A DNA stretch of 64,000 nucleotides from a virus (IMGVR_UViG_3300005365_000003:10730-74729); one strand, 5' to 3'. Shown: positions 353-14,730, numbered from the stretch's first letter. The notes: generated by a model from the letters alone, not told the origin. Numbers and translations: made by a program.

Positions 353-693
353 TGACAACAACAAATTTCAAAGTAGGACAGAAGGTGGTGTGTGTTAGGT
401 CTGGCGAGGCTAGTGATAGAAAACGAACAGAGACTGTTTTTGTTTACAAGGAAAAACAGTATACGATAAAAGATTTCGGGTATTTGGAAGAATCGGATGT
501 AAATATTGCTTGTCATTGGGTTGAACTTGAAGAAGTGGAGGGAAAATGGGGTTCAAATAGATTCCGTCCGCTTGCCTACTCGCACTCCATCTCAGCAACC
601 CTAGCGTCCACTTGTCTAAAAGAAACACAAATCGAAACCTCCGACACTCCTATAAAGGATCCAAGTCCGAAACCCGAAAAAGAAATAGCATGA
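349..693 (+). CDS. hypothetical protein with KOW-like N-terminus
   Basis: FKVGQKVVCV start; ATGA overlap with upstream gene. Confidence 0.65.
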   Translation: MMTTTNFKVGQKVVCVRSGEASDRKRTETVFVYKEKQYTIKDFGYLEESDVNIACHWVELEEVEGKWGSNRFRPLAYSHSISATLASTCLKETQIETSDTPIKDPSPKPEKEIA

Positions 694-932
694 AATACAC
701 ATTTGCAACAAATATTAACGGCAAAGGATTGACGGGCGTGATTGATGTTGAATTGGGCTCAATAGTTTGTTATTGTTCAGAGAAGCAGTCAAAGTTAGTG
801 TTGGAAAAGTTAAATCTATGCGAAGTGTTAACCAAAACCATCTCCGACCTCAACGCCCACATCTCCCGCTTGGGTGCTGAGAATGAGAAGCTGATGGAGA
901 TAAATGCGCAATTAAGAAAGGAAAGTATATGA
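690..932 (+). CDS. hypothetical coiled-coil protein
   Basis: Start re-called to ATG 690 (MKYTF), overlapping upstream stop; heptad-like C-terminus. Confidence 0.6.
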   Translation: MKYTFATNINGKGLTGVIDVELGSIVCYCSEKQSKLVLEKLNLCEVLTKTISDLNAHISRLGAENEKLMEINAQLRKESI

Positions 933-2020
933 ATATAATTTTTAAAGCACTTGTTGGAAGTCATGCTTATGGTACAAACATAGAAGGGTCTGATTTTGAC
1001 ATTAAAGGAGTTTATTTGCAATCCCCCGAAGAGGTTCTTGACTTAGGGTACAGGGAACAAATTACCGTAAATAAAGATGAGGTTTATTATGAGTTAAGGC
1101 GTTTTATTGAGTTGTGTTGTACCGGAAATCCAACTATGCTAGAGCTTTTGTATACTCCGGATGATTGTATAAAAGAGATTCATCCTTGCTTTATGAGGCT
1201 TATTGAAAATAGAGAAAAATTCTTATCCAAATCATGCAAGTTTTCTTTCGGTGGGTATGCCTACAGTCAGATAGGAAAAGCTAAGGGGTTAAATAAAAAG
1301 ATGAATTGGGAAAAAGATAAAGTAGAAAGAAAGACTATTCTTGATTTTTGCTATATACTTACTCCTATGGGATCACAACCTATACGCGAATGGCTCAGGA
1401 TTCAAAGAGGAGAAGCGACACGGCAGGAATATTATGGCGTATCAAAAGTGCCTAATTGCAGAGATATGTTTTATATTTATCCTAAAGATCAGGAAGGATT
1501 AGAGTATCATGGACTTTGCAATTCCGACGAAAGTTCAAATGAATTGCGCATGAGCAGCATTCCGGTAAATCAAATCGCTAAATGTACAGCAATGTCATAC
1601 AATAAAGATGGCTATATTGAGCATTGCAAAGATTATAATCAATACCAGGTTTGGCTAAAAGAGCGCAACACTCAGAGGTATGTTGATATTGACGAGCACG
1701 GACAGAAAATTGATGGCAAGAATTTACTTCATTGCTATAGGCTTCTTGAAACTGGAGTGGAGATAGCAAAGTTTCATACAATAAATGTACGCAGGCCAAA
1801 TGCCGCTTATCTTATTGAAATACGTAAGGGGAAGCATAATCTTGAAACTCTATTGAAGCAATCAGAAAGCAAAATGGAAGAATTAAATAAAGAATTTGAT
1901 TTATCTACCCTTCCGGACAAAGCGGATCGCGGATTTTTTATGTCATTAATGCCTAAAATAAGAAAAGAATATGAATCTACCAGAAATATATCTTTGCGAT
2001 ATAGACGGCACTCTTGCTGA
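929..2020 (+). CDS. DNA polymerase beta-superfamily nucleotidyltransferase (RlaP/YcgL-like)
   Basis: GSHAYGT...SDFDIKGVY (GS and DxD motif), YELRRF, GNPTMLELL, KNLLHCYRLL helical C-terminus. Confidence 0.85.
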   Translation: MNIIFKALVGSHAYGTNIEGSDFDIKGVYLQSPEEVLDLGYREQITVNKDEVYYELRRFIELCCTGNPTMLELLYTPDDCIKEIHPCFMRLIENREKFLSKSCKFSFGGYAYSQIGKAKGLNKKMNWEKDKVERKTILDFCYILTPMGSQPIREWLRIQRGEATRQEYYGVSKVPNCRDMFYIYPKDQEGLEYHGLCNSDESSNELRMSSIPVNQIAKCTAMSYNKDGYIEHCKDYNQYQVWLKERNTQRYVDIDEHGQKIDGKNLLHCYRLLETGVEIAKFHTINVRRPNAAYLIEIRKGKHNLETLLKQSESKMEELNKEFDLSTLPDKADRGFFMSLMPKIRKEYESTRNISLRYRRHSC

Positions 2021-2396
2021 TTTTAAACATCACCGGGGGCCGTTTGATGAACATAAGGTATTAGGAGACAAACCGCTTCCTACTGTAAGGATTATAAATT
2101 CTTTAATTAGAGATGGAAATAGAATTATTTTCTTTTCTGGAAGGACAAGTAATTGTCATAAAGATTCTTGCGAGTGGATAAAAAATCATACTGGTGAATA
2201 CAATCCTGAATTATATATGAGGGAGCCAAAAGATAACCGTTCAGATGATATAGTGAAAGAGGAGATGTACGATAAGTGGATTCGAGGTAAATATGAAGTG
2301 ATAGGCGTATTTGATGATCGATTGAAAGTTTGCAGAATGTGGAATAAGTTAGGATTATTTGTATTCAACTGCAATCAAGGATTAATAGAATTTTAA
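1971..2396 (+). CDS. HAD-family 3'-phosphatase (T4 PseT/PNK phosphatase-like), stand-alone
   Basis: DIDGTLA motif I, FFSGR motif II, MR..DNRSDDIVK, FDDR motif IV. Confidence 0.9.
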   Translation: MNLPEIYLCDIDGTLADFKHHRGPFDEHKVLGDKPLPTVRIINSLIRDGNRIIFFSGRTSNCHKDSCEWIKNHTGEYNPELYMREPKDNRSDDIVKEEMYDKWIRGKYEVIGVFDDRLKVCRMWNKLGLFVFNCNQGLIEF

Positions 2397-2506
2397 TATG
2401 TCCACTTATTATCTATACACAGCAATCTTCATCCTCCTTACCTTCCTTGTGGTGGTGGGGAGGACAATATATAATCATAGGAATGACAAGTAGTTAATAT
2501 GAAAAA

Positions 2507-2839
2507 ATGTTTGGCAAGCCAAATAACCCTGAGTATGTTCTTTGTGCGGCAATTCATTTTAACGATGGCGAACAATACGATCATCAGCCACAAAACATTG
2601 AAAGAGGGTTTGTTATGTGCGGGCGCAGGCATCATAATATATACGTTTCTGTTATGATAATCAATGGAAAAGAAATGACAGCTATTGAAAGAATGACTGA
2701 AGCAAACGGAAAGGCAATACAGGGATTTTTAACAAGCAAAGGCAGATTTTTAAATAGAGAAGAAGCCGGAAAACTTGCCTATGAAATGAAACAAACAGAT
2801 AAATTAACGCACTGTTTATTTAGTGAGGATTTATATTAA
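2507..2839 (+). CDS. conserved phage hypothetical protein (GFLTS...LFSEDLY type)
   Basis: CAAIH, CGRRH, QGFLTSKGRFLNREEA, LFSEDLY motifs recurrent in phage hypotheticals. Confidence 0.7.
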   Translation: MFGKPNNPEYVLCAAIHFNDGEQYDHQPQNIERGFVMCGRRHHNIYVSVMIINGKEMTAIERMTEANGKAIQGFLTSKGRFLNREEAGKLAYEMKQTDKLTHCLFSEDLY

Positions 2840-2845
2840 AACAAA

Positions 2846-3256
2846 ATGACCAACCCCGACTTCTCCAACTTCACCCCCTGTCCGAAGGCTGAGCCTAAAC
2901 CAAAGAAGGTGTATGCTGGGTTAAAAAGGACAGCTTTAAAGAAGAAGTGGCCTGAACCAAAAGGGAAACGTGAGTTTTTCCGGTCAATATGGGAAAAGTG
3001 CGGCGGCTTGTGCATGGTTACGGGGCATCCATTTCCCATGAATAGCAGTTATTCGTACATGCACGTCCTGGCACATGGCCCTTTTGAAAGGTTTGAATTT
3101 TATGAAAAAAATGTTTTGTTTGTAAATCCGCGTATTCACACACTTTATGATAACGTAGGCAAGACTAAACTACTTGAAGAATTTCCGGAGGCGGCGTGGA
3201 TTTTTGATTTGAAAGAAATTTTGCTAATGGAATATAACCGGCTGCCGACTATTTAA
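2846..3256 (+). CDS. HNH-like nuclease-fold protein (degenerate)
   Basis: CGGLC...HVLAH...KNVLFVNPRIHTLYD matches H-N-H spacing; second Cys pair absent. Confidence 0.5.
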   Translation: MTNPDFSNFTPCPKAEPKPKKVYAGLKRTALKKKWPEPKGKREFFRSIWEKCGGLCMVTGHPFPMNSSYSYMHVLAHGPFERFEFYEKNVLFVNPRIHTLYDNVGKTKLLEEFPEAAWIFDLKEILLMEYNRLPTI

Positions 3257-3317
3257 ACTAAAACAAATTATAGAATTAGAGAGACTATAAAAATATTAAT
3301 CAATTAATAAATATAAA

Positions 3318-3905
3318 ATGGGGTATAGAACACACATTGGAATTATTTCAAAGAAAGAATATAATGAAATAAAATCTTTTAATCAGGAGCAACTTAATTC
3401 CTATAAGGGCAATAAAGATAAAGATGACTATATAGGAGCATGGGAAATAGCTCCATCATTATATGAGTTTGGGAAATATACAGAATTTGATGATGAAAAA
3501 TTTTATAAACCATTTTGGGATAATGAAGAATTTCAAGAATACTATGAAGGCGATTTTTGGGTGGTAGAAAAAGAATTTTTGAAACATATTATTGAGCATT
3601 ACAAAAACAAGGTGCTTTCATATTATGAAAATTTACTTACCGCAGATGGAATACAGGAAGAATATGGTAGGTTTAAAAAAATAACCGAAGACGGAATAAG
3701 GAACTTATCATTTGAAAAGAAGGTTGAATGGTTTGACCACATTAAAAATATTTGGTCAGAATGGAAAAATGATTTTGCTATTGATATGACTCACAGAGAG
3801 AAAATAACAGGGAGCTGGAAGTATGAATATTCACTATTTGAATTGGCTAGAATTTATAAAACTTTTGATTGGGAAAACAATATAATGGTTTATTATGGAT
3901 ATTAA
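3318..3905 (+). CDS. hypothetical protein
   Basis: 195-aa ORF with A-rich start context; C-terminal VYYGY. Confidence 0.75.
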   Translation: MGYRTHIGIISKKEYNEIKSFNQEQLNSYKGNKDKDDYIGAWEIAPSLYEFGKYTEFDDEKFYKPFWDNEEFQEYYEGDFWVVEKEFLKHIIEHYKNKVLSYYENLLTADGIQEEYGRFKKITEDGIRNLSFEKKVEWFDHIKNIWSEWKNDFAIDMTHREKITGSWKYEYSLFELARIYKTFDWENNIMVYYGY

Positions 3906-3976
3906 TTTTGTAAGGCTGTTATCATATTTCAATGTAAATCCAATTATTTTATAATTAGAAAAAGAAATATTTAATT

Positions 3977-4489
3977 ATGACCGAAACCATCTCCGCCGCC
4001 GAATACCAGGCCCGTTATGGGCGTAAGGCTACTTTAAAACTTAATCAAGAGAAGTCCGCTTCAATAAAAAAAGGCCGCTCCGCACTCTCTGAGCCACCTA
4101 CAATCGACTCAATTGAGTCCGACGGCAAAATGGTCAAGATAACGCTGGCGGGGCTTATACCGGGGCTTAATGGGAAAAATGGGCTTATGTCCGAGCACTG
4201 GAGTATGCGATTAAAGCGTAAAAAGGCAATGATGATGAGGTTAAAAGTGCTAAATCCACCTAAATTTAAAGGAATAGTTGAAATTTCATTCAAAACATAC
4301 GTTTCTATATTGTCTGATACTGAAGATAATCTACCGGCAAAACGAAAGGTGTTGTATGATTGCTTTGTTACACTTGGGATTATAGAAGGGGATAGTCCAT
4401 TTATACTTAAATCAACTCCTCCTCAGCAAATAAAGTCTAGGCGTAAGGATCAAAGGGTCGAAGTGATTATTAAATCAGTAAAACAATGA
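3977..4489 (+). CDS. rusA: RusA-like Holliday junction resolvase
   Basis: PGLN...DTEDNL..RKVLYDCFVTLGIIEGDS...RVEVII fits RusA catalytic Asp/Lys spacing. Confidence 0.7.
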   Translation: MTETISAAEYQARYGRKATLKLNQEKSASIKKGRSALSEPPTIDSIESDGKMVKITLAGLIPGLNGKNGLMSEHWSMRLKRKKAMMMRLKVLNPPKFKGIVEISFKTYVSILSDTEDNLPAKRKVLYDCFVTLGIIEGDSPFILKSTPPQQIKSRRKDQRVEVIIKSVKQ

Positions 4490-4656
4490 GTGAATTATTA
4501 TTTATTATAGGATATAAATGTCCTGCATGTGGAAACGAAGTAGGGACAGAAGGAATTGGACATGATGATCCTGTTTATTGTTTAAGGTGTCCGGACGGTG
4601 AATATACCGACATGGAGCCTATTTATGAAGAAGCAAATAATAATGAGGATGAGTAA
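4486..4656 (+). CDS. small zinc-ribbon protein (56 aa, not in ORF track)
   Basis: MSELLFIIGYKCPACG...YCLRCPDG; ATGA overlap with rusA. Confidence 0.65.
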   Translation: MSELLFIIGYKCPACGNEVGTEGIGHDDPVYCLRCPDGEYTDMEPIYEEANNNEDE

Positions 4657-4852
4657 AGAATTTTCATTATACGATTCTATTGTCTCTGTTCATGAGATTG
4701 TATGTGATAACTGTTCTTTTAAGGACTATGTTCATACAAATGATTGCCATGAAGCATGCGAATACTTTTACGAAGAAGGATGGCGTGTTCCGAGGTCAAA
4801 ATGCTACTGTCCTAACTGTATAAAAAGGAAATTAAAAACAAAGAGGAAATGA
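4649..4852 (+). CDS. small zinc-binding protein
   Basis: Start re-called to 4649; CDNC and CPNC pairs, EGW motif. Confidence 0.65.
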   Translation: MSKEFSLYDSIVSVHEIVCDNCSFKDYVHTNDCHEACEYFYEEGWRVPRSKCYCPNCIKRKLKTKRK

Positions 4853-5034
4853 AAAGGTTTATTATAAAACACTTCAAATACGAAGCAATGCAATTCAAAT
4901 TCATGAGAAAGTGGATGGGTGGAGATTATTTTAAAATTCAACCTAACTTACCTATGGGTCCATTTTGGAGTGATATTATAATTACAAGCTGCCAGTCTGT
5001 ATTAACAAAACGAGAATCTTATCCCACAAATTAA
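4849..5034 (+). CDS. hypothetical protein
   Basis: ATGA-coupled 61-aa ORF. Confidence 0.55.
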   Translation: MKRFIIKHFKYEAMQFKFMRKWMGGDYFKIQPNLPMGPFWSDIIITSCQSVLTKRESYPTN

Positions 5035-5046
5035 AACCATAAAATT

Positions 5047-5214
5047 ATGAGTTCAGCTTTATTAAAAAAATGCGCAAATGTTTTAAGAGATGTTGATTAT
5101 TTATTTGATGAATTAAACAATGAAATAAATAATTTAGATGAAGAATTAGGTAAAAAAGAGGATGAAATTTCAGCACTTAAAGAAAAAATACAAGAATTAA
5201 CGGAAGCTAAATGA
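5047..5214 (+). CDS. small coiled-coil protein (55 aa, not in ORF track)
   Basis: MSSALLKKCANVLRDVDYLFDELNNEINNLDEELGKKEDEISALKEKIQELTEAK; ATGA overlap with next gene. Confidence 0.6.
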   Translation: MSSALLKKCANVLRDVDYLFDELNNEINNLDEELGKKEDEISALKEKIQELTEAK

Positions 5215-5642
5215 GCATTTACTTAATAAAAAACCGTGCGGGTACTTTCAGTCCACTTGACGCCAGCGACTTTGAAGCCGCAAACTCTATTCCTCCTGGC
5301 AGTGTAGTGAAAGCAGAGAAAGCGCGTAATTACAAATTTTTAAAGAAAGCAATGGCTCTTCTAAATCTTGGATTTCAGAATCAATCCGAATTTACAAACT
5401 TCGATTCCTACAGAAAGATGAAGACAATAAATGCTGGATTTTTCGATCTTGCCCCATTCGCCGTTAAAGATCTTGCCGGAAATTATTTCACTACACAGAT
5501 TCCTATCGCTCATTCTCTTGCGTTTGATAAAATGAAAGAATCCACTTTCGAAAAAGTATTCAACGCCATACTCGATATAATTGCCTCAGACACATTAACC
5601 GCTCCTGAGCAACTAAGGAGAGAAATAGAAGGATTCTATTAA
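5211..5642 (+). CDS. DUF1367 family protein
   Basis: RNYKFLKKAMALLNLGF, INAGFFD, SLAFDKMKESTFEKVFNAILD. Confidence 0.75.
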   Translation: MSIYLIKNRAGTFSPLDASDFEAANSIPPGSVVKAEKARNYKFLKKAMALLNLGFQNQSEFTNFDSYRKMKTINAGFFDLAPFAVKDLAGNYFTTQIPIAHSLAFDKMKESTFEKVFNAILDIIASDTLTAPEQLRREIEGFY

Positions 5643-5644
5643 GA

Positions 5645-5821
5645 TCATTCATTCGTCAACTCCTTATAATGACAAGTCAATATCTCATCTTCCATTAAAA
5701 TAGGCGGTTGTATTCCTATAGATGGCGGCAATAGTTCCAGGTTGCTTATTATTTCTTTTAGAGAACTTATGATCTGCTCAGTAGTTCCCTTTCCTTCGAT
5801 TTTAATGTGTGATTTAAACAT
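5645..5821 (-). CDS. hypothetical protein (58 aa, not in ORF track)
   Basis: MFKSHIKIEGKGTTEQIISSLKEII...MEDEILTCHYKELTNE; converges on DUF1367 gene. Confidence 0.55.
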   Translation of the reverse strand: MFKSHIKIEGKGTTEQIISSLKEIISNLELLPPSIGIQPPILMEDEILTCHYKELTNE

Positions 5822-5891
5822 TGTGTAAGTGGTTGGTTTAGTGATTGTTGTTATAGTTAATATCCTTTTTTGTTTTATTTTTAAAAATTGT

Positions 5892-6083
5892 TTAGTCTTT
5901 TATAAAATTTTCTCTCCTTTTGATTTGATCTAACATTCCTTCTGGATGTTCAAAGTCCAAGCATGCAAGAAATCGGAGATTTGATAATTCCTTTTCAGTC
6001 TCAGCCCTGTTAATTTTGTCCATCATTTCGTGCTCCCGGTCAAGGGGAGACTTTAGTAGTAGGTCTTTGGTGTGGTGGCGCAT
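5892..6083 (-). CDS. hypothetical protein, probable paralog of 6384-6542
   Basis: 63-aa ORF; ungapped N-terminal similarity to 6384-6542 product. Confidence 0.6.
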   Translation of the reverse strand: MRHHTKDLLLKSPLDREHEMMDKINRAETEKELSNLRFLACLDFEHPEGMLDQIKRRENFIKD

Positions 6084-6103
6084 GGTGAATGTGGGTTTTA
6101 AGG

Positions 6104-6382
6104 TTATGGATCAATAAAATCTTCGGTTTCTTTAGCTTCAATTTCAATTATTTTTTTATAAAGCTCTTTTATTTGGTCTGAATCAAGATCAACTCTTACA
6201 TATCTTTCGGTTTGAATATCATCGGATAGCATTTCAAAAAAAGTTATTGACTTAACGTATCCTTTATGCTTTCCTATGTTGTTTGGTTCATCCGTGTAAA
6301 TGAATTTTTTATTTTCCTTAATTGCATATTGATATTCTTCAATAATGAAATCCTTTCCACTTTTTGATACAATTGTTTTCAT
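6104..6382 (-). CDS. hypothetical protein
   Basis: 92-aa ORF in - strand cluster. Confidence 0.65.
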   Translation of the reverse strand: MKTIVSKSGKDFIIEEYQYAIKENKKFIYTDEPNNIGKHKGYVKSITFFEMLSDDIQTERYVRVDLDSDQIKELYKKIIEIEAKETEDFIDP

Positions 6383-6383
6383 T

Positions 6384-6542
6384 TTATGATTGTTTTTTAT
6401 AAATTTCCTTCAGTAAATTATTCAACATCTTTTCCATCATAGCCAGCTTACCCTTACATTCTGTTTTGCTTATCACTGCCAGAAGGTCTTGCTCCTTGTC
6501 GCGGAGGTAGTCGAGGTAAAAGGGGCGGGTGTGGCGTTTCAT
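6384..6542 (-). CDS. hypothetical protein (52 aa, not in ORF track)
   Basis: MKRHTRPFYLDYLRDKEQDLLAVISKTECKGKLAMMEKMLNNLLKEIYKKQS; fills gap, ATGA-type overlap. Confidence 0.6.
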   Translation of the reverse strand: MKRHTRPFYLDYLRDKEQDLLAVISKTECKGKLAMMEKMLNNLLKEIYKKQS

Positions 6543-6946
6543 AGGCTTATCCATCTTCTAATGGTTACTCTTGCAAAACTTTTATTGTTTCTTGTGAATA
6601 AACTGTTTTGACTTCCAAAATAGTTATCAGGAATCCAGTCGTTCATTTCGTGCTTAATTAATTCTTTTTTACATAACTCCATAAGTAACTCTGAATCTCT
6701 TTGTGAAGATAATTTTTCCGGAATTTCAAACTCAAAACTTTCATTTTCATGTTTTTTTCCTAATTTGTCTAGTCCAAATACTTCACATTCACATTTTACG
6801 CATGCTAATCTAGATAAACACTGGCTTAGTTGTTCGGGCGTAAGCTTTATTTTAGCAAAAACTGTGTTTGACAAATCATCCTCTATGTTAATTTCGGTAT
6901 AGTCGCTCCCGATTAGTATACTGATTCTTGCTGATGAAAGTTTCAT
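6539..6946 (-). CDS. hypothetical phage protein
   Basis: 135-aa ORF, A-rich leader. Confidence 0.7.
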   Translation of the reverse strand: MKLSSARISILIGSDYTEINIEDDLSNTVFAKIKLTPEQLSQCLSRLACVKCECEVFGLDKLGKKHENESFEFEIPEKLSSQRDSELLMELCKKELIKHEMNDWIPDNYFGSQNSLFTRNNKSFARVTIRRWISL

Positions 6947-7158
6947 ATTTTTTAGTGTTTAGTTGATTAATTTCTTGCCCTTCGCCCTAATTTTCGTTCG
7001 GTAAATGACCGCTACCCGTGCGTCCACTTGCGTCATTATTATCATCACCTGAAATTATCCAAATAAATATTATCACAACCCCAATAGTGAGCAGCGTACC
7101 GAATATTTTCAGGTCGTGATATGTTAAGGTCTGGAGTATTGTCATGGTGTCTGTGTTT

Positions 7159-7404
7159 TTATATCCAAAACGTTACTTCTTCTATTTTACCGTCTATTTC
7201 GTGTATTACAGTGCTATAGTCACGTTTTAAGTGGACCACCGTATCAATGTAGTGTTTATCTACCTGAGTTGTAATACACGTCATGCGATCCTTTATCATG
7301 TGTATCCTGGCAACCTTCCCCCTATCATCCGTTAGCCCATTGGCAAAGACGTTGATTATGTGGTATGATTCGAGGGGGTTGAGGGGGCAGGATGATTTCT
7401 TCAT
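7159..7404 (-). CDS. hypothetical protein
   Basis: 81-aa ORF coupled to upstream gene. Confidence 0.55.
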   Translation of the reverse strand: MKKSSCPLNPLESYHIINVFANGLTDDRGKVARIHMIKDRMTCITTQVDKHYIDTVVHLKRDYSTVIHEIDGKIEEVTFWI

Positions 7405-7924: not shown

Positions 7925-7964
7925 AGTGTTTCGCGTTATGCCGCCGCCGCGTTGGTTTGGGTGG

Positions 7965-8192
7965 TTAGTCTTTGGTAAAACAATCCTTTTTCCGATCAAT
8001 AATGTATGAGTGTTCCGAACCTTCTACCTTTATTCCTAAATAATCAAAAGCATCCATTGCGGCCCATCTTGCATTTTCATAGGACTTAATATCTCCTTCT
8101 TGCTCTGAACGAGATCCAAGTCTAAGAATGTGACCTATTGCTAGGGCTGCAACTTGCTCTGCTTGTTTTTTGTTGTCAAATTTATCTTTCAT
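7965..8192 (-). CDS. hypothetical protein
   Basis: 75-aa ORF with A-rich leader. Confidence 0.55.
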   Translation of the reverse strand: MKDKFDNKKQAEQVAALAIGHILRLGSRSEQEGDIKSYENARWAAMDAFDYLGIKVEGSEHSYIIDRKKDCFTKD

Positions 8193-8234
8193 GATTTCTG
8201 TTTTTAGTGATTATTGTTTTGATTCGTCCCCTAA

Positions 8235-8289
8235 GGGCGGCGGCAAGGAGGTAATCTTAGCAGATAAACCCTCCCGCCGCCGTGTGCCC
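8235..8289 (-). other. GC-rich intergenic stem-loop
   Basis: GGGC/GCCC, CGGCGGC/GCCGCCG, GGAGG/CCTCC and ATCT/AGAT arms; no U-tract. Confidence 0.65.
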
Positions 8290-8297
8290 GTCTCTAC

Positions 8298-9167
8298 TCA
8301 GGCAGTTTTGTTGATGATGATTATACAGGTTGCTATTGTCGTTCCGCTCTCTTTAAACGCTCCGGCTGGTACTTCCTCAATGTCTGCCCCTACTTTGTCT
8401 AGGAATCTTTTAAATGCAATCTCTTTTTTATTAGTTGAGTGCTGGAAATGTTTTGAGCAAATAGATACTAATTTTCCGCCCTTTTTTAGTCTGGCGTACA
8501 TTTCGGCAATGTGATCAATATCCTGATTCTTGCTGAATGGGGGATTTGCAACGATTCTATCAAAATGTATGTTTTTTACATTTGTAGATGTATGCGTCCC
8601 TTTTGTTATCTGATCCGCTAAAAAATCTTCTCCAAGTATTACACAGTCTTTAATTTTACTCAGAACATTTCTATTTATGTCCATCAGTTCAAAGGCGTGA
8701 ACGATTAAAGAGGGACATTTATCTAACAGGGCTTTAACTATTGCCCCCTGTCCGGCTGAGGGCTCTAGCACGGTCAAATCTCCGCTTGATATATCAGCCA
8801 ACGAAACCAAGTATTTTGCTAAGTCTGGCGGAGTGGCAAAGAATTGAAACTCTTTTTTAATATTAACGCTTTCCCCACCCATTAAACGATTAATATACGG
8901 TTCTGCATCGTTAGGGAATACGAAAGAGTTTTTCTTATAAGTTGCTCCGGCATTTAATAACGCTGCGCGAATGTCTTTGTAGTTGTCCAGCATTTCAGAT
9001 GGAAGCCATACGGTATTTCCTCCGTATGTACATTTAGATAATGATTCTTGAAAGGCGTTCATGTTTTCGCGTGGCTCTATTTGTTTAACTTGTACTGGTT
9101 GCACTTTTTCTTTTTTAGCTGGTTTTGTGCGATCCATGTGCTGATTGAATTGTTCTGTTAGGTTCAT
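8298..9167 (-). CDS. amino (N6-A/N4-C) DNA methyltransferase
   Basis: QFFATP, VLEPSAGQGAI (motif I), VANPPF (motif IV). Confidence 0.9.
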   Translation of the reverse strand: MNLTEQFNQHMDRTKPAKKEKVQPVQVKQIEPRENMNAFQESLSKCTYGGNTVWLPSEMLDNYKDIRAALLNAGATYKKNSFVFPNDAEPYINRLMGGESVNIKKEFQFFATPPDLAKYLVSLADISSGDLTVLEPSAGQGAIVKALLDKCPSLIVHAFELMDINRNVLSKIKDCVILGEDFLADQITKGTHTSTNVKNIHFDRIVANPPFSKNQDIDHIAEMYARLKKGGKLVSICSKHFQHSTNKKEIAFKRFLDKVGADIEEVPAGAFKESGTTIATCIIIINKTA

Positions 9168-9194
9168 AATTTTGAGTGTTAAAATTGTGGTTGT

Positions 9195-9932
9195 TTATTG
9201 AGAATCGCTCATTTCTTCTTTTGTCACATTGGCATCACTTGCCAAATATTCCTTATACTCATCTTCTCCAACTGTTCCCAGATAGTTACCTCCTCTAGTG
9301 CATATTCTAACAACTCCGGCATGATCTCCAAAACGCTCATCCTCTCTAATTTCAAAAACTTGGTTTAATTTTTCTTGATTCAATGATTTCATAGCTTCAA
9401 ATATTTCTCTTGGTTTAACCCCATCTGGACGATCAAAAGTTATTTTAACTTCTCTGTATTTTCCGGGAACTCCATTGTTATACACTCCGTCTTTCCATCC
9501 ATTGCCAATTGTTTCCCTTTCCCATTTAATAGAAAAATCCTTTTTAACTTTTCCGGTAAATTCATCTTGTTTTACTTCATTAATTCCCATAAGTGAATTA
9601 TACATCTTCTTTTGCTCTGAATTAAGCTTATCAACGCCTCCAATCATTGCAATAAACTTCGCTATCTGCTCAGGCTTGGAATAGATGGTTACGCCAGTCC
9701 ATTTAGTATGCCCTTTTTCATCCTGAAACATTACTCCTATATTGGAGTAAGTGGATTTCTTTACAGCATTCTTTCTTCCGTTCTTCGGATTGATTGTATA
9801 GCTGCAAAACCTGTCACCCTTTTTGGGCGTTGTTTCAATCCAATAGAATATTGAAGTTCTAAGTCTGAACCCATAAGGATAATCTTTTACCTCTAATGGG
9901 TTTGCTTCGGTGTAGTTGAGTAGTGGTTTCAT
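9195..9932 (-). CDS. conserved early phage hypothetical protein
   Basis: Start re-called to MKPLLNY; DYPYGFRLR...YWIE...NPKNG...KSTY family motif. Confidence 0.7.
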   Translation of the reverse strand: MKPLLNYTEANPLEVKDYPYGFRLRTSIFYWIETTPKKGDRFCSYTINPKNGRKNAVKKSTYSNIGVMFQDEKGHTKWTGVTIYSKPEQIAKFIAMIGGVDKLNSEQKKMYNSLMGINEVKQDEFTGKVKKDFSIKWERETIGNGWKDGVYNNGVPGKYREVKITFDRPDGVKPREIFEAMKSLNQEKLNQVFEIREDERFGDHAGVVRICTRGGNYLGTVGEDEYKEYLASDANVTKEEMSDSQ

Positions 9933-9968
9933 TTGTAGAGAGTTTAATTGGTTGTTGTATACATAGTT

Positions 9969-10008
9969 TAACGGAAGGGGGAGGGGAAAGGTTACGTTAT
10001 TGTAACAA
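9969..10008 (-). promoter_or_regulatory. ECF-sigma-like promoter with palindrome, copy 1
   Basis: Minus strand TTGTTACAATAACGTAACCTTT; GTAAC-N17-CGTTA; near-identical architecture at 10731-10770. Confidence 0.55.
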
Positions 10009-10014
10009 TTATTT

Positions 10015-10398
10015 TTATTTATTATATTGGCTTGATTTTGTAGGGTAAAAAGTGTAAGAATTATAACCGTTATTTTTTTCATCAGCTAATCCATTTTTTC
10101 TTAATTCCTGATAAACCTCTGAGGTGATAGAAGAATAGCTTTTTTCAACGGTTGGTGAAAATGTCATAGTTTCATATTTACCGTCTTCAAGTTGGAAAAC
10201 AACCCTTTCGTTTGTATTGCCATAAAGATTAGCTTCCCATTGCCAGTAAATGATTCTCTCCTCTCTGTTATTTGTTTCCGGATATTTTGGTTTATCAAAT
10301 AAATAATCTTCGCATTTAGATTCATGCGCTCCTCCGGTTTGAATAAGGAAATTATATAGTTTTTGAGCCAGCGGAGTTAATACTGTTTCTGTTTTCAT
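10015..10398 (-). CDS. hypothetical protein
   Basis: Start re-called to MKTETV (leader ends CTCTACAAAATG like its neighbours). Confidence 0.65.
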   Translation of the reverse strand: MKTETVLTPLAQKLYNFLIQTGGAHESKCEDYLFDKPKYPETNNREERIIYWQWEANLYGNTNERVVFQLEDGKYETMTFSPTVEKSYSSITSEVYQELRKNGLADEKNNGYNSYTFYPTKSSQYNK

Positions 10399-10426
10399 TT
10401 TGTAGAGATTAGATGATAAATTTTTA

Positions 10427-10696
10427 TTATATTTTTGTGAATTTTGAAAATCCAATATATTTTACGTGAGTTACTTTTTCCTCCTCCTTTAAATGATAGA
10501 AATTACCCCTATCAACAAATACAATTTTACCACTATTGAGTTTTATTTCAGCTCCTGTGTGTGCTGAAATATAAAACCCGCTTACTTCTGATCCATCAGC
10601 ATGGAATAAATGATACTTACTTCCATCTAATGAAGTGTATAAGTGAGTAGTTAATCCTGTTTCGGTATCTGTGTATGTTCTTTTTGTTTTTGTCAT
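10427..10696 (-). CDS. hypothetical protein
   Basis: 89-aa ORF downstream of ECF-like promoter copy 2. Confidence 0.6.
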   Translation of the reverse strand: MTKTKRTYTDTETGLTTHLYTSLDGSKYHLFHADGSEVSGFYISAHTGAEIKLNSGKIVFVDRGNFYHLKEEEKVTHVKYIGFSKFTKI

Positions 10697-10730
10697 TGGC
10701 GTAGAGAGTTATTGTTTATATATACCACTA

Positions 10731-10770
10731 TAACGATAAGACTTTGATAAAGGTTACAATAATGTAACAA
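10731..10770 (-). promoter_or_regulatory. ECF-sigma-like promoter with palindrome, copy 2
   Basis: Minus strand TTGTTACATTATTGTAACCTTT; TGTAAC-N17-CGTTA. Confidence 0.55.
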
Positions 10771-10822
10771 ATAATTTCATTTGTTTAATATTATAAAGAT
10801 TTACAAGCATTTAAAGTAAAAT

Positions 10823-11026
10823 TTATTCCGGGGCGCACCAAATGATATGCTTTAATTTGCACTTATATCCTAGTTTGCTTAAAATTTGCTCTTGTTTATA
10901 TTCGTTAAGTTGTCCTTGTTTGTACCTGTGCCTCCACTGCCTGAAAGTATTATATTCAATATCATCATCAAAATCTTTCCGCTTCATCTCAGCAAAGCAG
11001 TGTGTTATGGCTTCGTTTGTTGTCAT
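10823..11026 (-). CDS. small hypothetical protein, possible helical DNA-binding domain
   Basis: Start re-called to MTTNEAI; TATCTTTG at 11047-11054 upstream; RQWRHRYKQG...ILSKLGY. Confidence 0.6.
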   Translation of the reverse strand: MTTNEAITHCFAEMKRKDFDDDIEYNTFRQWRHRYKQGQLNEYKQEQILSKLGYKCKLKHIIWCAPE

Positions 11027-11046
11027 AGTTATGTAACTTAATGTTA

Positions 11047-11054
11047 CAAAGATA
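11047..11054 (-). promoter_or_regulatory. Bacteroidota sigma-70 -7 element
   Basis: TATCTTTG on minus strand. Confidence 0.55.
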
Positions 11055-11227
11055 TTAAAATGTAGTCCACTTGATATATACGCAAATAATTTATTTATGT
11101 TACACCATATCAGAATAATTAATATCTTTGTCACATGAAACAGTTTCTAAGGCTTTACCTCCGCGTGTTCTCCCTAAAATAATAGGTGCAGTCCTCGCAG
11201 GGTAAGGCTATGCGGTAAAAAGATAAA

Positions 11228-11407
11228 ATGACATTAGGAATAGATAAGCTAACTAATGATGAATTACTAAAGGTAGTTATTGCGTGTGCTGAAATGGCGC
11301 AAACATCCATTGCGCAAGTAGCAGAAAAACTTGAAAAAAAAGATTTAGAACGGTTAGTAAATACTATAGTAAGACACAAAGAGCTTTGGAGCTCAAAACC
11401 AAAGTAA
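11228..11407 (+). CDS. hypothetical protein (59 aa, not in ORF track)
   Basis: MTLGIDKLTNDELLKVVIACAEMAQ...; AAAATG start context. Confidence 0.5.
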   Translation: MTLGIDKLTNDELLKVVIACAEMAQTSIAQVAEKLEKKDLERLVNTIVRHKELWSSKPK

Positions 11408-11433
11408 ACACACGCCCACTTATATTTTAATAA

Positions 11434-11655
11434 ATGCCAAACAAACCTTACTTAATAAGATTTAATTCCAGGGAAATAGCTGGTAAATTTTACATGTCTG
11501 ATGGAAGAGAGATAAACACAGGCATTTATGAGAAATATATTAATCATATTTGTGATTTAACGCTAGAAGAGCAAGATATTTTATTTGAGGAGTATATAGA
11601 AAATGAAGAGCGTATTAACAGGATCACTGAAAACATATTTAATCTATTAAAATGA
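11434..11655 (+). CDS. hypothetical protein
   Basis: 73-aa ORF, A-rich start. Confidence 0.55.
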   Translation: MPNKPYLIRFNSREIAGKFYMSDGREINTGIYEKYINHICDLTLEEQDILFEEYIENEERINRITENIFNLLK

Positions 11656-11873
11656 GCGAAAGATCCGACAAAGCCGACCTATTAGCCCAAAACATTAAGT
11701 CCACTTGCAGCAAATTACAGCAAGAAATGGAAGACAAGCCTTATATAAGGCCAGGTAAAGGCGAAACAAAGATTTGGAGTAATTTAGCTGATTTAAAGGA
11801 TTTGTTACCTGAAAACAAAAAGACAGGATATGCGCACTTTACTGAAGAAGATGACGGATTCTATGATTTATAG
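11652..11873 (+). CDS. hypothetical protein
   Basis: ATGA-coupled 73-aa ORF. Confidence 0.55.
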   Translation: MSERSDKADLLAQNIKSTCSKLQQEMEDKPYIRPGKGETKIWSNLADLKDLLPENKKTGYAHFTEEDDGFYDL

Positions 11874-12149
11874 CTAAACCACAGCAAACACACGTCCGCG
11901 ACACAAATAATTTAACTGCCAACCAAAACACGAAGCCCATTTGACACCAAAACCAAAGACTAAAAAGGCAGCCAAACGCAAATCAAAGGTTTGGTACAGA
12001 GTCAAACAACTAAGAGCATTACTCAAATACATGGGTAAATAGGCTTTATACTCAACACATAGGCAGAATAGCCTCCAACCATTAGACGTAAAACGAGATA
12101 AAACATAGAGAATAAGCATTAAATGCAATTGTATAGACGTTAAAGTTGC

Positions 12150-12157
12150 TATATTTG
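12150..12157 (+). promoter_or_regulatory. Bacteroidota sigma-70 -7 element
   Basis: TATATTTG ending 4 nt before ATG 12162. Confidence 0.6.
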
Positions 12158-12161
12158 CGCA

Positions 12162-12365
12162 ATGACAACACGAAAAGGCTATCTATTTAAGAAAGGCGAT
12201 AAAGTATTGCCATTAGTATATCTATCACTTAAAGCCATTTGCCAGGAATATGGACTAAACTATTACAGCGCAGTAAGAGGTAAGCGGACATTTCCTATGA
12301 GGGGCGAGATAATGGAGGTTGTGATACACGGATATGGTAAGCGCGGCAAATCATTTGGCAGATAA
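12162..12365 (+). CDS. small basic protein, possible DNA binding
   Basis: YLSLKAICQEYGLNYYS HTH-like segment. Confidence 0.55.
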   Translation: MTTRKGYLFKKGDKVLPLVYLSLKAICQEYGLNYYSAVRGKRTFPMRGEIMEVVIHGYGKRGKSFGR

Positions 12366-12397
12366 ATACGTACCTGTCAGTCCACTTGGATCCAAAA

Positions 12398-12733
12398 TTA
12401 AATACCCTTCTTAGTAACACCAAACGCATTACTAACAGGAACAGCAGGCATTAACAGCAAGTCTTCCAAAGTATATCCGAAAGACAGGGCAAGCTTAGAC
12501 AATATAGAAATTCCACAGAATTTAGTCTTTCCGTTGCAAATGTTATAGGCGAACGTACAGGAGCATCCAGCACGTTTTGCAATGAATGGATAACTTAGAC
12601 CCTTTTCATCCTTTAAACGCTTTATATGATTGCCTATCAGGCTAATTATAGCCATATTACTTCGCTCTATCAATTCCTCCGTGAAAGGGAGATGGGAGTA
12701 GGATCCGGAGGCAGGGATGCGGTAATTCCTCAT
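12398..12733 (-). CDS. XRE-family helix-turn-helix regulator
   Basis: IKRLKDEKGLSYPFIAKRAGCS...YNICNGK...LSKLALSFG; TACCTTTG at 12741-12748 supports start 12733. Confidence 0.85.
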   Translation of the reverse strand: MRNYRIPASGSYSHLPFTEELIERSNMAIISLIGNHIKRLKDEKGLSYPFIAKRAGCSCTFAYNICNGKTKFCGISILSKLALSFGYTLEDLLLMPAVPVSNAFGVTKKGI

Positions 12734-13006
12734 AACAAAGCAAAGGTACAAAGTTTTTTATTCAACAAAACATAATTTTTCTCGTTATTTAGTCAAAACA
12801 TGGCTCCACGGCCAGCACTAACAGATCCTAATTAGCTTAACAAATAAATTTGTTCTATAATTTACATTATATTAAATTGTTTAACTATTTGCGTAGGAAT
12901 TAATCACTTACAAAGCACGCTTTCTATTACAACTCATTACAAAGCTAATACGACACTTTCCCTTTGAGTGGAATAACAGTACGTTAGTAAAATTATAATT
13001 GATTAA

Positions 13007-13190
13007 ACGCGAATTGTGAGAAGATTATTTTCGCGTATTCCTGACTAAAATCTCTCATATCTGCCAGACTTGAAAAACTACTTTCAGTTTTGATGCCACC
13101 CGGTCGAAATTTTCGCGTTTTCCTTTGGCGCGCATACCCCATTCGCTATAGGCGTTATCCCCACCCATCCCCCGCACGATCCACTTATAT
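13007..13190. other. GC-rich non-coding signal region, candidate terminus/packaging site
   Basis: ATTTTCGCGT direct repeat (13027, 13109), ACGCGAA/TTCGCGT inverted repeat, C-rich tract; no ORF. Confidence 0.35.
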
Positions 13191-13490
13191 CTAACTCATT
13201 TCCGCCACCCACTTTCCAACCAGCTCGTCTATCTTCTCCACGCTAAACGGGTGTATTCCGAGTGACTGTCCGCAGCAACCTACTGTGCAGTGGCAAATAT
13301 AAAGCCCCATGCTGTTATACGGATCGGGATTGATTAGTACACCTATCTCTGCTGTAAGATTTGACTTACCGACAGGTGTTTTTATGAATTTGCTGTAATA
13401 TACACCACCTGACTGTTTGACAAACATGGGTCTGAAGCTCCATAGGATAGTTTCTGGTTTATACCCTGCTTGTTTTAACTGTTTTATCAT
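13191..13490 (-). CDS. hypothetical protein
   Basis: Last gene of the coupled - strand cluster. Confidence 0.6.
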   Translation of the reverse strand: MIKQLKQAGYKPETILWSFRPMFVKQSGGVYYSKFIKTPVGKSNLTAEIGVLINPDPYNSMGLYICHCTVGCCGQSLGIHPFSVEKIDELVGKWVAEMS

Positions 13491-13879
13491 TTAAAGATTT
13501 TATCATCAATCAGTTGGCTGTAAGCTTTCATAATAACTTCGCTTTTTGACAGAATCACGGTGTAGATGTCTTCTCCCAGGTATCTGACTTGATGAAAGGT
13601 AACTTTAATATCAGTGTTGTTGTCATCTATTGACTCGATTATGGCTTTAAGATGTGATATAGAGAATGGTTGCTTTTTTGGAACAAGTGGACTCATGGGC
13701 AGTTTCTTCTCTTCAAACCACTGAGGATTATTCTCTACAAGATTAGATGAATAGCTTTTAAATGGGTTATCTTCATGAAAATAATATCTGCCATTATCTT
13801 CATCTAATTTTTTTAGTTCAGCTCCAGCTTTAATATCCGGCAGGTCTTTCTTGAGGATGTAGGTCTTTGGCTGTGTCAT
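13487..13879 (-). CDS. hypothetical phage protein
   Basis: YILKKDLP..KAG...VENNPQWFEE motif; ATGA coupling. Confidence 0.7.
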   Translation of the reverse strand: MTQPKTYILKKDLPDIKAGAELKKLDEDNGRYYFHEDNPFKSYSSNLVENNPQWFEEKKLPMSPLVPKKQPFSISHLKAIIESIDDNNTDIKVTFHQVRYLGEDIYTVILSKSEVIMKAYSQLIDDKIFK

Positions 13880-14181
13880 TGGCTTGATGCTGTAATAGGT
13901 TTGTTAAAGTCTGTTTTTAAGTTTGTTGGAATATCGCAATCTTTCAGTCTGTCATTTACAATAGGCTTCACATCCCTCACATTCACCCCATCCGTCATAT
14001 CCTGGCAGGCGTTGAGATCGCAAGAATTGTAATGTCGGATCCGACCCTCAGCTTCAAGTATTATTGTGAATATGTAATTATCATGCGCAAATGGCTCTAC
14101 GCACAGCACTCTTCCGCGTCCATGCGGAGTGTTGACCCATAGCTTTAGTTCGGAGGGGAGGAATGAGATGGCGGAACTCAT
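13876..14181 (-). CDS. hypothetical protein (SH3-like beta fold possible)
   Basis: LWVNTPHGRGRVL; ATGA coupling. Confidence 0.6.
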   Translation of the reverse strand: MSSAISFLPSELKLWVNTPHGRGRVLCVEPFAHDNYIFTIILEAEGRIRHYNSCDLNACQDMTDGVNVRDVKPIVNDRLKDCDIPTNLKTDFNKPITASSQ

Positions 14182-14321
14182 GGATTTAGTTTTTTAATAA
14201 GTCTGTCAATAACAATATAGGCCATGTGTTCACACGAGGTTTTGTCGTGTTCTCCGAAATAGGATCTGATTAGTTTAAGATCCTTTATCTCCTGTGGAGT
14301 TATTTCAATTGTTATTTTCAT
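14178..14321 (-). CDS. hypothetical protein (47 aa, not in ORF track)
   Basis: MKITIEITPQEIKDLKLIRSYFGEHDKTSCEHMAYIVIDRLIKKLNP; ATGA coupling. Confidence 0.55.
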   Translation of the reverse strand: MKITIEITPQEIKDLKLIRSYFGEHDKTSCEHMAYIVIDRLIKKLNP

Positions 14322-14493
14322 GCCCTTTAAATTAAGTCAACACCAAACAATCTTAGCCTTACAGAGTATGTTAATATGATTTTACCGGAAAGACCGTTAC
14401 GCCTTGAGAATAAGCAATTGTCGGCTTTTCTTATACTGATCCAGTTTTTAATATATGTATTATCGCGCATTAAATCGCAGTGTTTTGCTGGTT

Positions 14494-14730
14494 TCATTTT
14501 GCTTTCCTGCCTTTTTCAATAAACTCCATAACTATCCTTGATCTTAGGTCAAGGAGTTGCCGATTGGAGGAGTAGTTTATGTTTGTTATATTGGTTTCGG
14601 ATTCGGCAAGTGGACGTGAGGATGCTGATGCAATGGATCTAGTTTCATCATACTTGCACTTACATGGATGCCTGTAGCATTTATCACAAAAGCCGATGTA
14701 TTTGTTGTTATTATTGCTACTTTGAATCAT
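14494..14730 (-). CDS. small Cys-rich protein
   Basis: FCDKCYRHPCKC motif. Confidence 0.55.
   Translation of the reverse strand: MIQSSNNNNKYIGFCDKCYRHPCKCKYDETRSIASASSRPLAESETNITNINYSSNRQLLDLRSRIVMEFIEKGRKAK

Follow-up and report, generated by a model that had tools for sequence, protein, structure and literature searches.

GTCCRCTTG, a polar word converging on the repressor region of one phage lineage, as a probable strand-specific DNA signal

What could be the role of a nine-nucleotide word that recurs in one part of a viral genome and points from both sides to the same short interval? The word, GTCCACTTG, was noticed in a 64-kb window (the whole stretch of DNA that was analysed), corresponding to bases 10730-74729 of the 74,729-bp genome G000; window positions are marked 'w' below. 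All eight exact copies listed in the original prediction, six on the plus and two on the minus strand, are present (Table 1), and the window holds no others, in agreement with the claim that exact copies end before 14.7 kb. Dinucleotide shuffles of the window contain 0.29 copies on average and two at most. The ninth exact copy of the genome lies outside the window, at genome position 1388 on the minus strand, and makes the polarity imperfect. The Markov-corrected (third-order) k-mer count proposed as a check ranks GTCCACTTG as the top 9-mer of G000 (9 vs 0.32 expected, p 7e-11) and GTCCACTT as its top 8-mer (15 vs 1.7).

Table 1. Sites of the word, its variants and neighbouring features of the switch region (window coordinates)
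Feature	Position	Strand	Context
GTCCGCTTG (A5G variant)	566..574	+	left arm; next copy 40 nt downstream
exact GTCCACTTG	606..614	+	left arm; sense in 114-aa ORF, frame 2
GTCCACTTA (position-9 variant)	2400..2408	+	left-arm orientation; possible weak site
exact copy	5251..5259	+	within NinB/Orf gene, sense, frame 1
exact copy	7022..7030	+	antisense, in minus-strand gene block
exact copy	11065..11073	+	divergent promoter region upstream of small plus-strand block; conserved in L095
exact copy	11699..11707	+	73-aa ORF, sense, frame 2; conserved in L095, R3 and L114
67-aa basic protein	12162..12365	+	candidate motif reader (lead only); conserved in 4/4 motif-bearing lineages
exact copy, innermost of left arm	12380..12388	+	32-nt gap between stop codons of convergent genes
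Cro/CI-type HTH (XRE family) repressor-like gene	12398..12733	-	Pfam HTH_26, E 4.3e-5, above curated cut-off
457-bp regulatory region	12734..13190	.	in switch interval; Bacteroidota-type TAnnTTTG elements on both strands
exact copy, innermost of right arm	13684..13692	-	sense in 130-aa ORF; G000-specific
exact copy, right arm	14607..14615	-	sense in 78-aa ORF; exact in L095 and R3, flanks ~50% identical
GTCCACTTC (position-9 variant)	19504..19512	-	right-arm orientation; R3 has same variant, nearly same flanks
GTCCGCTTG, outermost of right arm	19615..19623	-	first gene of minus-strand operon; orthologous G variant kept in R3

It had been noted that all eight copies have their 3' ends toward 12.4-13.7 kb, and this convergence depends on neither the reading frame nor the strand of the genes. 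Taken alone, G000 gives this polarity weak statistical weight (0.06 for the eight window sites, 0.14 for the nine sites on the circle). The pattern is, however, reproduced in independent lineages. Three further mosaic lineages carry GTCCRCTTG, namely L095, R3 (a 73.9-kb NCBI contig) and the fragment L114; GTCCACTTG is enriched in both L095 (7 vs 0.09) and R3 (6 vs 0.29), and about 8-13 motif copies are kept per genome. Across the lineages, all 13 distinct left-arm sites are on the plus strand and all three right-arm sites on the minus strand, with one exception; a perfect two-block order would arise by chance with P of about 5e-4, relatives included. The rule is broken by the exact copy at genome 1388 (-) and by an 8-mer variant at w7228 (-). 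New sites at non-orthologous places have the right orientation every time, and the position-9 8-mer variants in the R3 early region obey the polarity in five of five cases.

The motif is best described as a strict 9-mer, GTCCRCTTG, with A or G at position 5, present in 11 copies in G000. The five one-mismatch variants named in the original prediction are all real, but that list was incomplete, as the window contains 15. Among them are the two GTCCGCTTG sites at w566(+) and w19615(-), both of which behave like true sites. This G variant is enriched by itself (2 vs 0.22 in G000, 2 vs 0.08 in L095 and 2 vs 0.17 in R3) and obeys the polarity rule in every instance. Apparently, only A/G at position 5 or else changes at position 9 are tolerated, a strictness that fits recognition by one protein. 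Around the copies we found no flank consensus beyond the 9-mer. The motif is also confined on the map. Of the 74.7-kb circle, an arc of 29 kb accommodates all 11 copies (P about 8e-4); they keep to the non-structural region of some 30 kb, and the structural genes contain none in either G000 (44 kb) or R3 (21.8 kb).

Amino-acid choice had been dismissed as an explanation on the grounds that the copies fall in different frames and in intergenic DNA, and both points stand. Copies occupy two sense frames, antisense strands and intergenic DNA. Shuffling of synonymous codons throughout the early region reduces the 11 copies to 1.3, of which about one is an intergenic site beyond the reach of the shuffling. 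With respect to local genes, distinct sites are sense in about nine cases and antisense in about seven. Since the copies point to the repressor gene from both sides whatever the gene direction, they represent a real directional DNA signal.

The same counts weaken the RNA motif that had been listed as an alternative, about half of the distinct sites being antisense to local genes. Such an element would act co-transcriptionally or at the RNA level: a factor for processivity, processing or stability would recognise the word either in the transcript or in the non-template strand while this is exposed. Two long early transcripts would start at the outer limits of the early region, run inward and converge at the switch, the minus-strand block being crossed antisense by read-through. 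Most early genes are indeed transcribed centre-ward, 16 of 17 distinct sites would be sense to such transcripts, only 2 nt separate the stop codons of the plus operon and the minus block, and the innermost copy is located where the converging transcripts would end. Terminator-like sites are no commoner than in shuffles, so that read-through is possible. Nevertheless, the sites antisense to the genes that contain them (about 7 of 16) would require putative long antisense transcripts. Moreover, the copies have no shared hairpin or common RNA fold, the Rfam covariance-model search of w1-21000 produced no match at gathering score, which led us to reject a known RNA family, and the Pfam matches of 20 early proteins comprise only HTH, DUF6745, DUF551 and two weak hits, with no NusG-like family. 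To our knowledge, known RNA-type signals occur once per leader and are not dispersed every 1-4 kb. We therefore regard an RNA-level element as decidedly unlikely.

Conservation in relatives sets the word apart from its surroundings: 53 of 54 motif bases are retained vs 73% in the 45-nt flanks on each side (Fisher p 2e-6). Two orthologous sites are exact within otherwise unalignable DNA, and L114, the fourth lineage, retains two sites. The w5251 site is exact in R3 and appears as GTCCGCTTG in L095 through a synonymous change (CCA to CCG). The w7022 site is exact in L095 despite different flanks and an abutting 3-nt indel, and a position-9 variant takes its place in R3. The w12380 site is found at the same gene-relative position in both L095 and L114, with unalignable flanks. 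It might be argued that all this reflects chance, common descent or an artefact of mutation or composition, as there are just three or four related carrier lineages and the polarity of any one genome carries little statistical weight. However, each genome shows extreme enrichment, the word persists where flanks have fallen to random level, gains at non-orthologous sites are always correctly oriented, and R3 has not retained the other words enriched in G000. An absence of function is thus hardly credible. As judged from the aligned genomes, selection preserves GTCCRCTTG while its surroundings diverge, and does so only in the non-structural part of the genome.

Even with variants counted, five relatives (G001, G409, L102, L104 and L106) contain zero or one motif copy, and no comparable word is dispersed through them. 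The hosts of cultured phages with a related terminase all belong to Flavobacteriia, and the GTCCRCTTG-bearing lineage of temperate-type phages most likely infects this class. On the genomic evidence, this one phage lineage possesses in GTCCRCTTG a functional, strand-specific DNA signal of its own.

The polarity switches at the Cro/CI-type HTH gene and its regulatory region. The non-coding region originally placed at about 13 kb is smaller than stated, part of it being the HTH gene itself. In the 457-bp regulatory region, matches to the TAnnTTTG promoter element occur at genome positions 23470(-), 23574(+) and 23669(-). R3 has an ortholog of the HTH protein (61% aa) and 85% column identity over w12700-13200; unrelated genes take the place of the HTH gene in L095. 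The switch intervals of the three lineages share no k-mer of at least 12, which argues against a shared cos or end site there. The copies around this interval may also be origin-flanking protein sites, one more of the alternatives originally listed.

The reading originally put forward for this geometry was that of Chi-like sites. In such a case, the word would be an attenuator of host AddAB or RecBCD. DNA ends at the switch region would be virion termini or rolling-circle tail ends from a nearby origin, and an enzyme moving outward would meet the copies 3' side first and be switched from degradation to recombination. If ends do arise at w12.4-13.7 kb, the arrangement fits, with 3' ends facing the centre on both arms. 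In addition, the density of copies peaks within a few kb of the centre, and a strict strand-specific word indifferent to frame and gene strand is typical of Chi. Lambdoid origins are usually near the immunity region, which also counts for Chi. AGCGG, which we take to be the Chi of B. subtilis AddAB, lies within the complement of the G variant and serves as a lead only. Chi-rich phages with terminal clusters do exist, such as LLS, MD8 and P1 (PMC12315714).

The over-representation expected of Chi in candidate hosts (hundreds of copies or more) was nevertheless not found. Among 522 genomes (401 Bacteroidota and 121 Flavobacteriaceae, a sample outside which the true host may lie), the word never exceeds 53 copies in a genome and is usually no commoner than its reversed control, and a 9-mer present only 5-20 times per genome would be useless to the host as Chi. 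The phage also has a Rec module of its own (Erf, SSB, NinB/Orf and RusA-like genes in G000, with ERF in R3 too), whereas the described Chi-rich phages have neither a phage Rec module nor a RecBCD inhibitor and Rec-module phages mostly lack Chi (PMC12315714). Close family members of the same layout do without the word, the centre has no conserved end or origin element, and the first 10 kb of late genes are copy-free though much of the left arm is farther from the centre. Given the lack of enrichment in the sampled host genomes, the phage's own Rec module, the word-less relatives and the missing central element, the Chi identity is not supported: GTCCRCTTG has little resemblance to a Chi site of the host, and a Chi-like attenuator of the host enzymes is unlikely.

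Alternatively, the copies might be sites at which a phage nuclease nicks or cleaves one particular strand, comparable to T5-type virion interruptions, with the nicked strand swapping at the switch. A strict asymmetric word in about ten copies per genome and in strand-specific orientation would suit such a role. So would the 67-aa basic protein encoded beside the switch, which among solved structures most resembles, though weakly, the part of the nicking homing endonuclease I-HmuI that binds DNA (Z 4.2; Foldseek E 6.7). However, no nuclease is common to all motif lineages, the GIY-YIG gene having no counterpart in R3, and the confinement to the early region is left unexplained. Moreover, the known nicks of T5 and phiKMV are confined to a single strand and do not switch between two arms. 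Nick sites are thus very unlikely.

The explanation that we tentatively prefer is a lineage-private site with a small phage-encoded reader and a directional action of Ter- or Chi-like logic. The word is scarce in candidate hosts and is gone in slightly more distant relatives, and the reader is therefore most likely encoded by the phage. A small protein would bind the asymmetric word as a monomer, and the bound site would act directionally on a DNA-tracking machine, be it a replisome, a helicase or a helicase-nuclease. The logic would be that of Ter/Tus or of a private Chi, not of the host's own Chi. Several small proteins are common to every motif lineage. One candidate reader is the 67-aa protein, for which the ESM Atlas gives a NUMOD1 or I-HmuI-NUMOD-like lead (0.76-0.79) and AlphaFold2 a model with pLDDT 81; a faint homolog occurs in G001, a motif-less relative. 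An 81-aa protein (w7159-7404) has two homologs among 5.8 billion proteins, both on motif-bearing DNA (L095-type and R3). In the scanned early region we found neither a Tus- or RTP-like protein nor a primase, a helicase-nuclease or a conserved nickase. It counts against the preferred explanation that a barrier model alone leaves the total absence from structural genes unexplained. In a more specific version, which we find somewhat unlikely, the phage's own reader (a small monomeric DNA-binding protein or a factor retargeting the host helicase-nuclease) and the two arrays would steer forks or DNA-end processing around the lysis-lysogeny switch. If this version is true, Ter- or Chi-type logic would be owned by a virus and not borrowed from its host.

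Among known systems, several could be set aside. DNA uptake sequences (USS/DUS) need hundreds to thousands of host copies in both orientations, vs at most 53 in the sampled genomes. The DnaA box (consensus TTATCCACA) has only the TCCAC core in common with the word: in DnaA-box register, where 1-2 mismatches would be acceptable, every copy has 3-4, always at positions 3 and 9 and variably at positions 1-2, and the conserved TTG is left unexplained. As to Bacteroidota sigma-A promoters, most copies are inside ORFs, and a plausible -7-like TAnnTTTG element is present downstream only at w11065. KOPS/FtsK and SRS/SpoIIIE are likewise polar words pointing to one locus from both sides. However, KOPS occur densely and with a skew along the entire host chromosome, with dif as their point of convergence, whereas here there is no abundance in the sampled host genomes and no dif-like central element, and 60% of the phage genome is copy-free. 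The fixed nick sites of T5-like and phiKMV-like phages resemble the present case in that a short word, strict and strand-specific, recurs at a few positions. They affect one strand only; here, two strands are involved, the sites are known from sequence alone, and no conserved nickase was found.

Chi-rich phages (LLS of E. coli, MD8 of P. aeruginosa and P1; PMC12315714) are closer, as their word is also the most over-represented oligomer, strict, strand-specific, clustered in one map region and not codon-driven. They differ in having one orientation instead of two opposed arms, and here the word is lineage-private and accompanied by the phage's own Rec module. Known Chi sites are 5-8 nt long vs 9 nt here, and the word is not abundant in the 522 sampled Bacteroidota genomes. 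The Ter sites of E. coli and R6K (with Tus) or B. subtilis (with RTP) are about 23 bp long vs 9 bp and share no sequence likeness with our word. A small dedicated protein recognises the Ter sites; here, the reader is a candidate only, and the proteins scanned include no Tus or RTP family match. We know of no Ter-type fork-trap system described for a phage. In layout, however, the two agree. In both cases, about 10 asymmetric sites, not abundant genome-wide, form two opposed groups that occupy about 40% of the replicon and point to a single interval independently of gene direction, as do the 13 plus-strand sites followed by three minus-strand sites, one exception aside, in three phage lineages.

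The word GTCCACTTG is over-represented in the phage genome (G000, 74,729 bp) far beyond chance. The eight exact copies of the original prediction are all present, on the plus strand at w606, w5251, w7022, w11065, w11699 and w12380 and on the minus strand at w13684 and w14607 (w, position in the window), whereas dinucleotide shuffles of the window give a mean of 0.29 and never more than two. The window corresponds to bases 10730-74729 of the record, and a ninth exact copy lies outside it, at genome position 1388 on the minus strand. In a third-order Markov model of the whole genome, the word is the most over-represented 9-mer (9 versus 0.32, p 7e-11) and GTCCACTT is the top 8-mer (15 versus 1.7). 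The five one-mismatch variants noticed by eye are real, but that list was incomplete, the total being 15. The copies occupy two sense frames, antisense strands and intergenic DNA. Amino-acid or codon choice can indeed be ruled out as the cause, since the frames differ and a synonymous-codon shuffle of the early region leaves 1.3 copies versus 11 observed. A longer motif or a hairpin was rejected, as the information content of the flanks and the folds add nothing to the 9-mer. The sites are also no closer than expected to the boundaries of homology (HSPs) between G000 and its relative L095, and a literature search for the sequence returned primers only.

Two other enriched words of G000, CTACTATAG and TCCGCTTAC, were rejected as comparable signals, neither being conserved in the related contig R3. 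Seven copies of CTACTATAG (0.66 expected) span w24544-60150 in the late region, four on the plus strand and then three on the minus strand; without conservation in R3 this pattern is probably due to chance. A further word, AGAAAAAGAA, has 13 copies in the whole of G000 (1.2 expected), mostly on the coding strand (e.g. w3566, w3957, w16259 on the minus strand and w25493), an excess that may reflect translation initiation or a Lys/Glu-coding bias.

The word recurs in further lineages. A search with a conserved 295-aa early protein uncovered the metagenome contig L095 (identical in sequence to L096), which is related to G000 in a patchwork fashion (68-95% at the nucleotide level) and has seven exact copies and two GTCCGCTTG in 20.6 kb; the exact 20-mer around the copy at w11065 matched only the L096 contig. 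R3, a 73.9-kb NCBI metagenome contig, represents a third lineage and was found via an 81-aa protein that has just two homologs among 5.8 billion proteins. The 57.6 kb of R3 that was read holds six exact copies and two G variants (the A5G form). L114, a 1.65-kb fragment of a fourth lineage, keeps two sites. The G variant is enriched on its own in G000, L095 and R3, and we therefore write the motif as GTCCRCTTG; judging from the sequences, variants at position 9 are possibly tolerated as well.

L095 covers seven of the G000 sites, of which five are exact, one is a synonymous A-to-G variant and one falls in non-homologous DNA. The word is conserved: 53 of 54 motif bases are identical between G000 and L095, versus 73% in the 45-nt flanks on each side (Fisher p 2e-6). 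Two of the sites have unalignable flanks, yet the word there is exact and at the same gene-relative place. In G000, L095 and L114 alike, the w12380 copy occupies the short stretch that separates the stop codons of two convergent genes. Sites have also been gained, appearing at non-orthologous places among the lineages. It is highly improbable that such a word has no function.

Other relatives lack it. G001, which has the closest terminase (85% at the amino acid level), has only the structural module in common with G000; it carries one copy and no comparable word. Its GGGGCGGCTGT cluster was rejected as a sister motif, being a different, local feature and not a dispersed polar word. In its non-structural region a longer word (about GTTCAAAGGGGCGGCTGT) occurs four times within 3.3 kb, each time on the minus strand (L085, 49029-52341); it may serve that phage as a promoter or regulator site. 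L102, L104, L106 and G409, relatives with 63-75% identity in the 295-aa protein, have 0-1 copies each, variants included, and in their own word rankings tandem arrays come first (27-nt in L102, 12-nt in L106 and G409), none of them dispersed or polar. A search for relatives with NinB returned nothing, and no record matches the NinB protein exactly.

PHROG and Pfam scans place terminase, portal and a long structural operon in one part of G000 and assign Erf, SSB, NinB/Orf, a RusA-like protein, a nucleotidyltransferase and several DNA methyltransferases to a non-structural region of ~30 kb. This single virus record begins and ends within the same 12-nt tandem array, which makes the assembly circular in effect. 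The array lies directly upstream of, or within the 5' end of, a DUF6745 gene, and 12-nt arrays with other units adjoin the homologous gene in G409 (8907-9267) and L106 (13839-14034, unit TAATTGGCTATA); the part of R3 that was read has neither the gene nor the array. By its sequence the array looks like an iteron-like or lineage-specific repeat. The 295-aa protein, which has about 190 homologs and belongs to neither a Pfam nor a PHROG family, occurs together with its methyltransferase in L095, G409, L102, L104 and L106, and the pair is absent from R3. R3 itself encodes two tyrosine integrases and a member of the Gad2 (anti-Gabija) family (L111:5172-6035, L110:14006-14845). The G000 proteins scanned included no integrase, so the lineage is not uniform in its lifestyle or integration modules.

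Features of the phage genome and candidate readers of the word
Feature	Position	Strand	Remarks
NinB stop and minus-strand block	w5642-5645		convergent; 2 nt between stop codons
81-aa protein	w7159-7404		candidate reader; lineage-exclusive
295-aa protein and adjacent Eco57I-like N6-adenine methyltransferase	w8298-10082	-	pair
67-aa basic protein	w12162-12365	+	candidate reader; right beside switch; aligned across lineages
Cro/CI-type HTH protein gene	w12398-12733	-	Pfam HTH_26, E 4.3e-5
Regulatory region	w12734-13190		457 bp
Structural operon	from about w19.9 kb on	+	
12-nt tandem array across contig junction	w63774-64000 and L001:1-160		unit GGCCAGCGTGTG, about 30 copies
DUF6745 gene	L001:24-815		
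75-aa zinc-ribbon protein	w4625-4852		candidate reader
78-aa Cys-rich protein	w14494-14730		candidate reader

Taken alone, the polarity in G000 is uncompelling (0.06 for the eight window sites, 0.14 for nine sites on the circle). With orthologs merged across lineages, there are 13 distinct left-arm positions, all 13 on the plus strand, and three right-arm positions, all three on the minus strand. Such a perfect two-block order of 16 sites has a chance of about 5e-4, or ~2e-3 on the circle with the sole exception among exact and G-variant sites, genome 1388 on the minus strand. The 8-mer variants in the early region of R3 follow the same rule (5/5). That the word is functional and polar is established by the evidence as a whole. 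It is also confined: all 11 G000 copies lie inside a 29-kb arc (P about 8e-4), and the structural genes have zero copies in 44 kb of G000 and zero in 21.8 kb of R3.

Orientation is independent of transcription. Relative to local genes, about nine of the distinct sites are sense and seven antisense, and copies inside the left arm's minus-strand block run antisense in each of the three genomes. This bears on the possibility that the word is an element recognised within a pair of long early transcripts that converge, which would require antisense read-through over that block. Where the block meets the plus-strand early operon, such read-through is likely in both directions, since the stop codons nearly abut and no terminator was found at the junction. 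A terminator scan, in which the sites were no commoner than in shuffles, is uninformative on this explanation, and we consider it improbable.

The polarity switches between w12388 and w13684. The "non-coding region" at ~13 kb toward which the copies were thought to point is really a short regulatory region beside a repressor-like HTH gene, and both lie inside this interval. The regulatory region is 85% identical between G000 and R3, above the neighbouring genes, and carries TAnnTTTG elements on both strands; gene and region together (w12398-13190) are probably a genetic switch. In L095 unrelated genes occupy the interval (an immunity-cassette swap). A common cis element at the centre was rejected, as no k-mer of at least 12 is present in all three switch intervals (G000, L095 and R3).

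The host is likely of Flavobacteriia type. This assignment follows from the Bacteroidota -7 element TAnnTTTG, 4.6 times denser in intergenic than in coding DNA, from the 87 cultured phages that have a related terminase, whose hosts are without exception Flavobacterium, Cellulophaga, Tenacibaculum or Maribacter, and from distant terminase relatives in Flavobacteriaceae and Flavobacteriales bins. A megablast of w1-20000 against cultured phages gave no match. The suggestion of a host Chi fared poorly when 401 Bacteroidota genomes drawn evenly and 121 Flavobacteriaceae genomes were counted: no genome has more than 53 copies, 5-20 being usual, and the word is mostly no commoner than its reversed control. 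The phage early region carries it at about 375 per Mb. With 10 copies per chromosome, a 9-mer cannot function as a host Chi, KOPS or uptake sequence, and the counts hold any 7-8-nt core near chance levels in typical genomes. Chi-like control of a host nuclease, with DNA ends at the centre, is accordingly unlikely, although the complement of the G variant contains AGCGG, the B. subtilis Chi. The geometry would fit DNA ends that arise at the centre, and it would equally fit rolling-circle tails started from an origin close by. Against this, sister lineages of the same layout are without the word and the centre is without a conserved element, observations that likewise speak against a common cos site or end at that point. 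Moreover, the published Chi-rich phages are without a Rec module and phages having one are mostly without Chi (PMC12315714), whereas this phage has Erf, SSB, NinB and RusA. Should an unsampled host use the word as its Chi, Bacteroidota would gain their first Chi candidate.

T5-like strand-specific nick sites are quite improbable, as no nuclease is common to all motif lineages. Because the signal most resembles Ter sites with a dedicated small binding protein, we tentatively favour, at somewhat less than an even chance, a phage-encoded reader; both this reader and its action are what we infer. GTCCRCTTG would be bound by a small phage protein as a monomer, and the bound site would act directionally on a machine tracking along DNA. 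A barrier model of this kind leaves the total absence from late genes unexplained. The candidates are small proteins present in every motif lineage; Pfam assigned no families to ten small shared proteins. For the 67-aa protein, language-model features hint weakly at NUMOD1 or I-HmuI-NUMOD-like domains. Its AlphaFold2 model (pLDDT 81) had no significant Foldseek match in the PDB, and with two aligners its best solved match was the DNA-binding region of I-HmuI, at only TM 0.51 and Z 4.2, a model-based resemblance that we regard as a lead.

In cells, the repair and segregation of DNA and the completion of its replication depend centrally on polar words, Chi, KOPS and Ter among them; in phages, a borrowed host Chi is to our knowledge the only polar word described. 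The present word is directional, appears to be private to a phage lineage, and is confined to early genes, with its centre at a repressor locus. A phage-encoded reader, if there is one, would represent a compact protein-DNA module of a new, orientation-dependent type and reveal a new layer in how phage genomes are organised. The word works like known polar DNA words, but when tested it did not qualify as a host Chi, KOPS, an uptake sequence, a DnaA box, a promoter or an Rfam RNA. Its agreement with a Ter-type trap is in the geometry. Like Ter sites, it is strict and asymmetric, with few copies that form two opposed arrays spanning about 40% of the replicon; it is independent of transcription and, in this phage, lineage-private.
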